Positions 61,255 through 63,606 of a stretch of 64,000 bases of DNA are shown piece by piece. The position numbers and the translations under genes are program-made. The notes beneath the pieces were generated by a model. It ran no database searches. It was given only the letters and a program-made list of their open reading frames with translations, and was not told the origin of the DNA. The first letter of the stretch is position 1. Each line of letters starts with the position of its first letter. Source of the stretch: a virus (taxonomy: Duplodnaviria > Caudoviricetes); IMG/VR virus record IMGVR_UViG_3300031669_005479, positions 128,001 through 192,000 of that record; one strand, written 5' to 3'.

Positions 61255-61446
61255 ATGATGAAAGAAAGATATATGATTGTGAGAATAGTGAATATTCTTG
61301 CAGAAATGAAAGATAATGGTTCGATGATAACTGAACCATGTTATCAAATAGTTGATAAAGATTATGAGACACCAGATTCTGCTTATAATGTTAAAGAAAA
61401 TTATAGAGAACCGAAACACTATATCGTTGTACAATATTGGTGCTAA
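61255..61446 (+). CDS. Small hypothetical protein; stop lies inside attC-like site 1
   Basis: TAA within TGCTAAC. Confidence 0.55.
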   Translation: MMKERYMIVRIVNILAEMKDNGSMITEPCYQIVDKDYETPDSAYNVKENYREPKHYIVVQYWC

Positions 61447-61569
61447 CGTCAAATGTATGGTTAGTGGCGAATTAGAAACCACAAACCTATCAAACTGAAC
61501 AAAAGTAAGTAGATAAAACAAATGTTAAACCACACACAAAACCGCCATTAACTATACATATTGTTAGGC
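61441..61569 (+). other. attC-like site 1
   Basis: TGCTAAC gtcaa ATGTATGGTTAGTGGCG ... CGCCATTAACTATACAT att GTTAGGC. Confidence 0.8.
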
Positions 61570-61594
61570 GTATGTGCTTTAAAATCATAAAAAT

Positions 61595-62014
61595 ATGAAA
61601 TACGAATTAAGACATCATTCATATAAACCAACTTTAGGAGGTAAAAGTGTTCTGTCGAATAAAACAATAAACGACCTTGGTGAAAGTGCATTATATTACG
61701 TAGGAACATTTAGTGAGTATAATCCATTGTATTTGGGAAACAATTCATTATTATATATAAGAAAAAACTGGACAACAGATGGGAATATACTGCACAAGAT
61801 TAACTTAAAAGGATTAAAATTTAAAGGCGGAATTAATCATTCTGGTTCTGGTATTTGCACTCATGGAGGATTCCAATTAACTAAACAAGATTTATTAAGA
61901 ATTGCTAATGCTATGGATGAAACAGATACCCTTGTTTTATCTGAAATCATACAAAAGACAGAGGAAGGAATTAAAATGTTCAAAGATGGACTAATAGAGG
62001 TTGTAGGTTCTTAG
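61595..62014 (+). CDS. Cassette A hypothetical protein
   Basis: 139-aa ORF between sites 1 and 2. Confidence 0.6.
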   Translation: MKYELRHHSYKPTLGGKSVLSNKTINDLGESALYYVGTFSEYNPLYLGNNSLLYIRKNWTTDGNILHKINLKGLKFKGGINHSGSGICTHGGFQLTKQDLLRIANAMDETDTLVLSEIIQKTEEGIKMFKDGLIEVVGS

Positions 62015-62020
62015 CATTAC

Positions 62021-62113
62021 GCCTAACGATTGGGTATATACGAAGTACCCTAACTACAAACTTAAAAATTAGTACAAACCTTAATAGGGTATTTCGTATA
62101 TACCTTGTTAGCA
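62021..62113 (+). other. attC-like site 2
   Basis: GCCTAAC gattg GGTATATACGAAGTACCCT ... AGGGTATTTCGTATATACC tt GTTAGCA. Confidence 0.85.
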
Positions 62114-62277: not shown

Positions 62278-62397
62278 TGCTAACGGTTTTAATATAAAAC
62301 GTTGCAACATAAAGGTAAATACATGTAACAAAACTTGAAATTAAACGTATAATATAATAGAAACCACAACAGCAATGTTTTATATTTGTTGTTATAA
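62278..62397 (+). other. attC-like site 3
   Basis: TGCTAAC ggtttt AATATAAAACGTTGC ... GCAATGTTTTATATT tgtt GTTATAA. Confidence 0.8.
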
Positions 62398-62595: not shown

Positions 62596-62717
62596 TTATA
62601 ACGTTGATTGTATGGCACGTTGCCACTACTAAGTTTAATTTGAAAAACAAAATATTATGATTACAGAAATAGAAAAATTGAAAAAACTACAGCAATGTGC
62701 TATACAATGTGTTATGG
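62596..62717 (+). other. attC-like site 4
   Basis: TTATAAC gttg ATTGTATGGCACGTTGC ... GCAATGTGCTATACAAT gt GTTATGG. Confidence 0.85.
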
Positions 62718-62965
62718 CACGTACTTCTGATGCTGAATTAGCTACAAGAGCGACACGAGTTGGAGAGCTTCATTGTTTGCACATAGCAGCAACTATGAAT
62801 ATAGAAGAAACTGCCAAAAGCTTAACACAAATACTTGAATACAAACAAGAACTCGCAAAAGAGATGCTGCGGTGTTCGGACGAAAAAGCAACCGACCAAT
62901 TAGCGGATGCAATTACATATAGTGACGAAATGATTAAAAAGGTGCTTGGTATGTATGTGCCATAA
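62657..62965 (+). CDS. Cassette D protein; starts inside site 4 and crosses the GTT core
   Basis: ...QQCAIQC-V-MAR..., GTT = Val codon; stop TAA inside site 5. Confidence 0.65.
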   Translation: MITEIEKLKKLQQCAIQCVMARTSDAELATRATRVGELHCLHIAATMNIEETAKSLTQILEYKQELAKEMLRCSDEKATDQLADAITYSDEMIKKVLGMYVP

Positions 62966-63239
62966 CGGCTGGCGGTATGGTGTCGGTTGCCGTTGAATAA
63001 CCCACCGACTTTGATTAAATGAACAAATGTTGAATAACTTAAATAGTGAGCGATTATGAAACAAGCGGAAATAGTAAAACAAAGATTAAATTACCACTTT
63101 AGAAAAACAGATGGTGGATGGTTAATACCAGAAAATATGCCATTTATGAATGAGTTTTTAAACGAGGTAAGTAAATTATGTGAATTAGCGAACGGTGCTG
63201 AACAAAGAGAAAGCAACTGCAATATACCGCTTGTTAGCA
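62960..63239 (+). other. attC-like site 5 (280 bp, coding loop)
   Basis: CCATAAC ggctg GCGGTATggtgtcgGTTGC ... GCAACtgcaatATACCGC tt GTTAGCA. Confidence 0.75.
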
Positions 63240-63394
63240 CACGTTATTTTGCTAAAATTAAATACTACCCTTGCACGGGTGGAGAACCAATATGGACTGT
63301 TGATGAAGTAGATGCAACAAGTATCGAGCACGCTACCGAATTGTTTAATGATATATGGCACATGAACGCAGAAGTTAAATGCGTGTATAAATAA
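63056..63394 (+). CDS. Cassette E protein; N-terminal half encoded in the site 5 loop
   Basis: ...ESNCNIPL-V-STR..., GTT = Val codon. Confidence 0.65.
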   Translation: MKQAEIVKQRLNYHFRKTDGGWLIPENMPFMNEFLNEVSKLCELANGAEQRESNCNIPLVSTRYFAKIKYYPCTGGEPIWTVDEVDATSIEHATELFNDIWHMNAEVKCVYK

Positions 63395-63398
63395 TGTG

Positions 63399-63492
63399 TG
63401 CTAACGGTTGGGTGTATGAGAAGGTTTGCTTAGATGAACTTTCAAATTACTACTAAACTTTATAGCAAACTTTCTTATACACCTTGTTATGC
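63399..63492 (+). other. attC-like site 6
   Basis: TGCTAAC ggttg GGTGTATGAGAAGGTTTGCT ... AGCAAACTTTCTTATACACC tt GTTATGC. Confidence 0.85.
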
Positions 63493-63606
63493 TCTCGTGC
63501 CGACTTATTAACCACAAATCTTAATTTGAAACACGAAATAAAAACAAAAAGAATTTTAGGGTGGATTTTTTAAAATTGAATATTTATATATATAAAACAA
63601 AAACCT

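Follow-up and report, generated by a model that had tools for sequence, protein, structure and literature searches.

Phage-borne array of integron-like hairpins that probably precede, and partly encode, their own genes

A row of small open reading frames (ORFs) with imperfect hairpins in between, found in the genome of a giant uncultured phage, is best explained as a phage-borne, integron-like hairpin array with a polarity opposite to that of bacterial integrons, so that each hairpin precedes its gene; the probability of this reading is estimated at about 60%. The mobile unit would begin at the C of one ...TAA/C box, take in the hairpin with its GTT and then the gene body, and finish with the AA of the following ...TAA/C box, and the crossover would take place at AA/C on the sense strand, 5' of the hairpin, with a recombinase as the likely agent of exchange. 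The hairpin would serve as a start or expression module. Long-loop hairpins (about 112 to 128 nt, sometimes several hundred) would carry the start codon in the loop, and the first 15 to 20 codons (rarely about 60) would come from the loop, the 3' arm, and the GTT box, mostly read as Val. Such ORFs would cross only the non-exchanged edge of their own hairpin, and reordering would leave them intact. Over long times, hairpin types have come to be joined to unrelated bodies, probably at cassette formation, resulting in the same N-terminal part (head) on different proteins. ORF 63056 would be an exception: the loop of hairpin S5 accommodates the whole of a small gene (domain X), which lacks its stop codon and is read through the arm into a 53-aa body.

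The source is a linear 202,814-bp viral contig, 66% complete, and the window, that is, the whole stretch of 64,000 nucleotides that was analyzed, comprises its bases 128001 to 192000. The window is AT-rich and contains 16 tRNA genes, and the hairpin array is placed between two tRNA clusters. Each hairpin of the array is closed by ...TAAC on the left side and by GTTA... on the right side. Our own hairpin scan gave six sites (S1, S2, S3, S4, S6, and S7); S5, which fell under the scan threshold, was added, for seven sites (S1 to S7) in the array of the window region, where no recombinase was seen. The features, in window numbering, are as follows.

61445-61565, plus strand: hairpin S1, from our scan; its ORF starts after GTT
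62025-62109, plus strand: hairpin S2, from our scan; its ORF starts after GTT
62282-62393, plus strand: hairpin S3, from our scan; its ORF starts after GTT
62596-62720, plus strand: hairpin S4 including core and extension; AAC 62600-62602, GTT 62711-62713
62596-62602, plus strand: R'' core of S4, TTATAAC
about 62603-62625 and about 62690-62710, plus strand: 5' and 3' arms of S4; the loop between them contains ATG 62657
62711-62720, plus strand: R' extension of S4, GTTATGGCAC
62657-62965, plus strand: ORF 62657 (ORF-E, protein P0002), 102 aa; 19-aa head from the loop and the 3' arm, Val19 = GTT
62957-62966, plus strand: R'' extension GTGCCATAAC, fully complementary to GTTATGGCAC; cassette E ends here on the right
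62964-63235, plus strand: hairpin S5, 272 nt; AAC 62964-62966, GTT 63233-63235, loop of 215 nt
about 62967-62992 and about 63210-63232, plus strand: 5' and 3' arms of S5, the latter translated CNIPL
63056-63394, plus strand: ORF 63056 (protein P0001), 112 aa; domain X, arm-encoded linker, Val60, and a 53-aa C-part
63062-63190, plus strand: domain X (residues 3-45), within the S5 loop
63233-63249, plus strand: 17-nt R' extension of S5, with a complementarity of 94% to the R'' extension of S6 (63389-63405)
63236-63391, plus strand: C-part of ORF 63056, orphan, 53 aa
63389-63488, plus strand: R'' extension and hairpin S6; AAC 63403-63405, GTT 63486-63488
64150-64263, just beyond the window: hairpin S7, from our scan

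A second array (locus L067), outside the window at contig bases 34-2323 on the opposite strand, has six hairpins, and four of its ORFs likewise begin within hairpin loops and read through GTT. Its hairpin T3 and S3 share 80% identity across 192 nt, and the genes that adjoin the two are unrelated. Searches of six cassette proteins against Pfam and PHROGs produced no match, scans of viral contigs for peptide patterns taken from just P0001 and P0002 retrieved no relatives, and a search of GenBank phages for the array hairpins returned a single match, of the S3 type. Several cassette ORFs in the two arrays end on the TAA of a ...TAAC box (61444-61446 and 62963-62965 in the window, 613-615 in L067), so that both gene ends overlap recombination boxes; the stop codon of ORF-E thus belongs to the next R'' core, CCATAAC. 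The sequence TAATTTGAAA, which resembles the Bacteroidota -7 promoter element TAnnTTTG, has three exact matches in the 64-kb window, all within the array (62636-62645, 63440-63449 on the minus strand, and 63522-63531), and may be a candidate cassette promoter.

The TAAC...GTTA boxes surround paired arms at all 13 sites of this genome and at 88 distinct sites in related contigs, and the RYYYAAC consensus is loosely kept (e.g., TTATAAC). The arm type of S5 is that of the short 93-nt hairpins of L056 (7850-7942) and L038 and of the 90-nt hairpin of L041 (10056-10145). The S4 fold has an energy of -13.7 kcal/mol (z = -2.5) for the top strand versus -8.7 kcal/mol for the bottom strand, and in S2, S4, and S6 the sense strand is more stable than the antisense strand by 2.3 to 5 kcal/mol. 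Two L-stem positions are fixed at all 13 sites, where a 5'-arm G always faces a 3'-arm T (e.g., 62616/62704 and 62621/62699). Such a pair forms a G.T wobble when the sense strand folds and a C.A mismatch when the antisense strand does, and the sense strand folds better because these two conserved positions are G.T there. There are no clear bulges of the kind expected for extrahelical bases; instead, the spacers are 5 versus 2 nt long, in addition to the two fixed G.T positions, and these pairs are a possible strand marker that replaces extrahelical bases. On the sense strand, it is the 5' arm that has the longer spacer; this is hard to reconcile with the extrahelical bases of the classical attC and counts against the preferred explanation. 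The consensus fold derived from four contigs (the window, L064, L023, and L026) retains the R and L stems. The minimum-free-energy fold of S5 does not form the long-range stem, which counts against the preferred explanation.

An earlier note on this DNA had proposed that ORFs 62657 and 63056 start inside the loop of the preceding site and cross its core with GTT as an in-frame Val codon. Both do: ATG 62657 lies in the S4 loop, with GTT as codon 19 (..QQCAIQC-V-MAR), and ORF 63056 starts in the S5 loop, with GTT 63233-63235 as codon 60 (..SNCNIPL-V-STR), which leaves 59 residues ahead of it, in agreement with the estimate of about 59 N-terminal residues encoded by this loop. The predicted junction peptides spanning the head/body Val are LQQCAIQCVMAR and, for ORF 63056, SNCNIPLVSTR.

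For the protein P0002, 34 homologues were found; almost all have a length near 100 aa, and their alignments begin at residue 4-8. The ORF-E family is full length almost everywhere. In the alignment, A15 is more than 90% conserved, and L8, L11, and Q12 recur; the N-terminal residues are conserved across 23 aligned homologues. ORF-E combines an S4-type head with a conserved family of 100 aa, in which the head is kept even where the hairpin has been lost, as in L061, L069, and L070. Across ORF-E relatives, the 3' arm and the R' extension are near-invariant, and the ORF itself is about 74% identical. Between the window and L064, the changes in the head are synonymous and conservative; one compensatory change within the hairpin turns the residue pair QC into HD. 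In L064, the 5' arm is about 60% diverged and ORF-E is 93% identical, which counts against the preferred explanation; this divergence could be a breakpoint inside the hairpin.

The same organization was looked for with a 3'-arm pattern, which pulled 59 viral loci and, from them, 88 distinct oriented hairpins in about 40 viral contigs. An ORF of at least 40 aa with an ATG inside the hairpin reads through GTT in 35 of these 88, compared with 9 of 88 on the antisense strand and 17.7% of random intervals. Such starts are found in 32 of the 50 hairpins of 101-135 nt and in 1 of the 29 hairpins of up to 100 nt. GTT is in frame 0 in 22 of the 35 through-reading ORFs; part of this bias arises because GTTAG read in frame 1 gives the stop codon TAG. 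Seven frame-1 "heads" (MFYTRC) were discarded, as their ATG inside an S7-type arm is probably spurious and the true start is likely to follow GTT. Long loops with large N-terminal parts or whole ORFs occur in L064, L041, L002, and L058. The loop of the 441-nt hairpin of L064 (461-901) holds an entire ORF of 95 aa, stop codon included, and a 55-nt compartment of the same contig (903-960), which lies between matching R' and R'' extensions and contains no ORF, is possibly a cassette scaffold without cargo. In L037 (3154-3278), a body of 198 aa is joined to the hairpin head MKNKSTELAQNPPFCKTDV; its LDIETMG motif is reminiscent of a DnaQ-type exonuclease, so that hairpin starts appear to be used by more than tiny ORFans.

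The polarity of the array can be read from the boundaries of the conserved units. ORF-E and its upstream hairpin are conserved jointly in the window, L064, L023, and L026, and the flanks outside the two bounding AACs are unrelated in all four; the similarity of the window to the other three contigs stops at 62957-62966. A 966-nt contig from a bioreactor metagenome (X4) agrees with 63400-64152 except at a single position; this shared stretch comprises exactly S6 and its gene up to the next AAC, and it has foreign flanks on both sides. In L030, body C retains S2 upstream and has a different hairpin downstream. Arrays open with a hairpin, and in 10 of 10 arrays the body behind the last hairpin ends in the complementary R'' extension; the array of the window terminates in GCCACATAAC with no hairpin after it, and S1 has no upstream partner. 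The R' and R'' extensions, complementary over 10 to 17 nt in the window, follow a chain rule, with at most one mismatch in 10 nt for 33 of 55 neighboring sites. Similar sequences follow the terminal AAC in this phage (TCGTTTATATATG; L001 6516-6540, which is 64516-64540 in window numbering), in X4 (TCGTTTATAAC), and in a relative with a recombinase gene (TATTATATATC; L068, about 2310-2330), and this shared sequence may be the primary insertion site.

In G001, the contig that holds L030, a gene for a 268-aa Xer-like tyrosine recombinase starts 36 nt past the terminal AAC, on the same strand as the cassette genes. The protein scores 138 bits against integrase_gron (cut-off, 265), and its best match is XerA. 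No match to PF00589 was found in the 203-kb phage contig (66% complete), and searches of this contig for Y1 transposases and serine recombinases were likewise negative; an IS200/IS605-like reading, also considered, has no support. The lack of a recombinase hit in this contig counts against the preferred explanation, as does the fact that neither circles nor junctions were seen.

The unit boundaries, the array ends, and the adjacent recombinase speak against the classical model, in which the hairpin belongs to the upstream gene, and they point to a crossover on the other side of the hairpin, at the AAC edge; the more stable sense-strand folds of S2, S4, and S6 fit this polarity. With the crossover at that edge, ORF-E and ORF 63056 would lie inside one cassette each, the latter closing at the AAC of S6 (63403-63405), and cassette reordering would not split them. 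Two of the previous suggestions have to be revised in this light. The N-part had been assigned to the upstream cassette, whereas the conserved unit is a hairpin with its downstream body, bounded by AAC...AAC; and a reorder at G/TT, which had been expected to create new in-frame chimeras, would not do so if the crossover is on the opposite side of the hairpin and each ORF is contained in one cassette.

Exchange confined to the AAC edge is called into question by the breakpoints of metagenome contigs, which pile up also at the GTT edge, at 61561/2 and 62105. Joints with sides shorter than 30 nt link similar hairpin arms and were left out of the rearrangement counts. At the site of ORF B (139 aa; 61583-62007), unrelated genes are found instead in L030 (reverse complement) and in metagenome contigs, with identical extensions (R' = GTTAGGCGTATGTGC and R'' = GCATTACGCCTAAC); here, the cargo seems to be replaced and the extensions retained. 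These breakpoints and the replacement of ORF B make exchange at the GTT edge possible. That this edge is a second active exchange point (e.g., through recombination on the opposite strand), at which heads are swapped in frame in phage populations, is nevertheless unlikely.

The same heads do occur on different bodies. The S4-type head (..QCAIHDV; consensus, roughly ME..KLKKEQQCAIHDV) continues after the Val into five mutually unrelated bodies, including ORF-E and those in L004/L041, L038, and L058, and a complete 18-aa head is common to L009 and L010, whose bodies are unrelated. Among 20 pairs of proteins with similar heads, the bodies are similar in only three or four; most of these pairs share just the 8 residues that are dictated by the hairpin arm. 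The bodies of ORF-E, T4, and P0038/P0039 always carry the same head. A similarity between the N-terminal halves of P0001 and P0038 was dropped, as it is not significant (E = 0.05) beyond the arm-coded CNIPxV. Our analysis suggests that shared heads probably arise when cassettes form. The hairpin would be a portable start module rather than a protein-diversifying device.

Domain X, the N-terminal part of ORF 63056, is found elsewhere as a stand-alone protein of 55-74 aa in three other contigs, e.g., as the 62-aa P0003. In L065, it follows the GTT of another hairpin type and has its own stop codon; in L066, it is a 55-aa protein whose gene, inspected by eye, is not flanked by hairpin boxes. The search for proteins that share only one half, which had been suggested as a check, was therefore positive, with S4-type heads on unrelated bodies and domain X standing alone. 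The idea of the Val codon as a boundary between separable parts is upheld by the independent assortment of heads and of domain X, but this assortment would not come about through routine cassette reordering. The further inference of a combinatorial protein-diversification system found no backing, as there is no sign of selection and the shared parts are mostly the 8 arm-coded residues.

In the window, domain X lacks a stop codon and is read via the arm (CNIPLV) into the 53-aa part, for which no sequence homologue was found; a search for shorter homologues of P0001 also returned none. This appears to be a genuine fusion across the hairpin arm, represented by a single case. The chance that it is instead a recent loss of the stop codon of domain X, with a read-through that is untranslated or harmless and no functional fusion, is small. 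The uniqueness of the fusion, the fact that domain X homologues end after KLC, the orphan state of the C-part, and the weak Atlas model of the whole protein (pTM, 0.38) would all fit such an accident; on the other hand, the seventy codons past domain X stay open in no more than 0.4% of shuffles, the Atlas model of the C-part resembles 70-aa phage proteins (TM, 0.84 by query), and the body itself lacks a start codon. An annotation artefact, with translation starting after GTT (for ORF-E, at ATG 62714) and the upstream extension being a chance frame, is highly improbable. It would account for the ATG that directly follows GTT in ORF 62657, but in the homologue P0006, which lacks the hairpin, the Val is followed by Ile in place of this Met, so the upstream ATG must be the real start. 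The artefact is further contradicted by the conservation of the N terminus in the 23 aligned homologues, by the nature of the head changes between the window and L064, by the strong excess of through-reading starts over the controls, and by ORF 63056, which has no in-frame start after GTT until codon 95.

Two other explanations concern the array as a whole. An active crossover at GTT, in which the head belongs to the upstream unit and shuffling routinely makes chimeras as a selected form of diversification, would be in line with the frame-0 excess (22 of 35), with the same heads on unrelated bodies, with domain X under different heads or none, and with the contig breakpoints at GTT. It is judged quite unlikely in view of the unit boundaries and array polarity, which put the exchange at AAC, and because the shared head is mostly just the 8 residues coded by the arm, the bodies of ORF-E, T4, and P0038/P0039 never change heads, and the frame bias is partly due to the frame-1 TAG. 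Hairpins that act mainly in RNA, with the loop presenting the start codon and controlling translation, processing, or mRNA stability, could explain the G.T (G.U) positions that favor the sense strand, the start codons in the loops of 32 of the 50 long hairpins, and the confinement of the A-rich, promoter-like TAATTTGAAA to the array within the window. Such a mainly RNA-based role has a low probability, given the occurrence of cassettes in other contexts with sharp AAC boundaries, the chain rule of the R'/R'' extensions (at most one mismatch in 33 of 55 neighbors), and the recombinase that adjoins the array in a relative; a role in RNA may coexist with recombination rather than replace it.

The preferred reading, an integron-like array of reversed polarity, can be compared with several known systems. 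Virulent phages carry attC clusters without integrase, known as CALINs (Qi et al. 2023, PMC9892861). Like integrons and CALINs, the array has imperfect hairpins closed by ...AAC and GTT... boxes, units whose start is complementary to their own far box, and rows of small orphan genes; a tyrosine recombinase at one array end, as in integrons, is present here in the relative G001, and the absence of an integrase from this contig, with sites recognized by our own scan, is CALIN-like. Unlike attC, which lies 3' of the ORF with the crossover at G/TT behind the hairpin, the hairpin here is 5' of the gene, so that all ORFs are reversed relative to the classical integron direction; the integron layout of recombinase, primary site, and cassettes is matched only on the opposite strand, with every gene reversed. 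Further differences include gene starts inside the hairpin loop, R-box complementarity over 9 to 17 nt instead of 7, two fixed G.T positions and a 5- versus 2-nt spacer in place of obvious extrahelical bases, and, in the relative, a 268-aa recombinase that is Xer-like and below the IntI cut-off.

In sedentary chromosomal integrons (Vibrio VCR type), one hairpin type is attached to many unrelated ORFs. The present array shares this feature, which is best explained by cassette formation and not by shuffling; in contrast to VCRs, the attached hairpin adds coding sequence, so that what is shared becomes visible as the same N-terminal peptide on different proteins. In class 1 integrons, the integration site supplies translation starts (ORF-11 of attI1 and fused cassettes), and the recombination site thus gives the cassette gene an initiation signal or N-terminal residues, as it does here; the donor, however, is a single attI or an accidental loss of attC, whereas here it is each cassette's own hairpin. 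PeSLs of T4-type phages are described as composite promoter-terminator motifs that mediate modular shuffling (PMC2839356, PMC4122927), and they resemble the present sites in being conserved stem-loop modules between small accessory phage genes, with modular swapping and, in the present array putatively, expression signals. No description of reversed cassettes with genes that start inside the hairpin was found in the literature.

In integron biology, the recombination site is taken to come after the gene and to have little coding content; here, the site precedes the gene and encodes its start and first residues, a natural case of one DNA stretch constrained by both DNA structure and protein sequence. 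Because the heads are encoded by hairpins, unrelated small phage proteins share N-terminal peptides, which matters for the annotation and clustering of phage ORFans. If the GTT edge were active as well, N termini would be shuffled in real time, and a head could be anything between a 17-aa peptide and an entire small protein like domain X. The correction of polarity matters for anyone modeling cassette exchange in such arrays.
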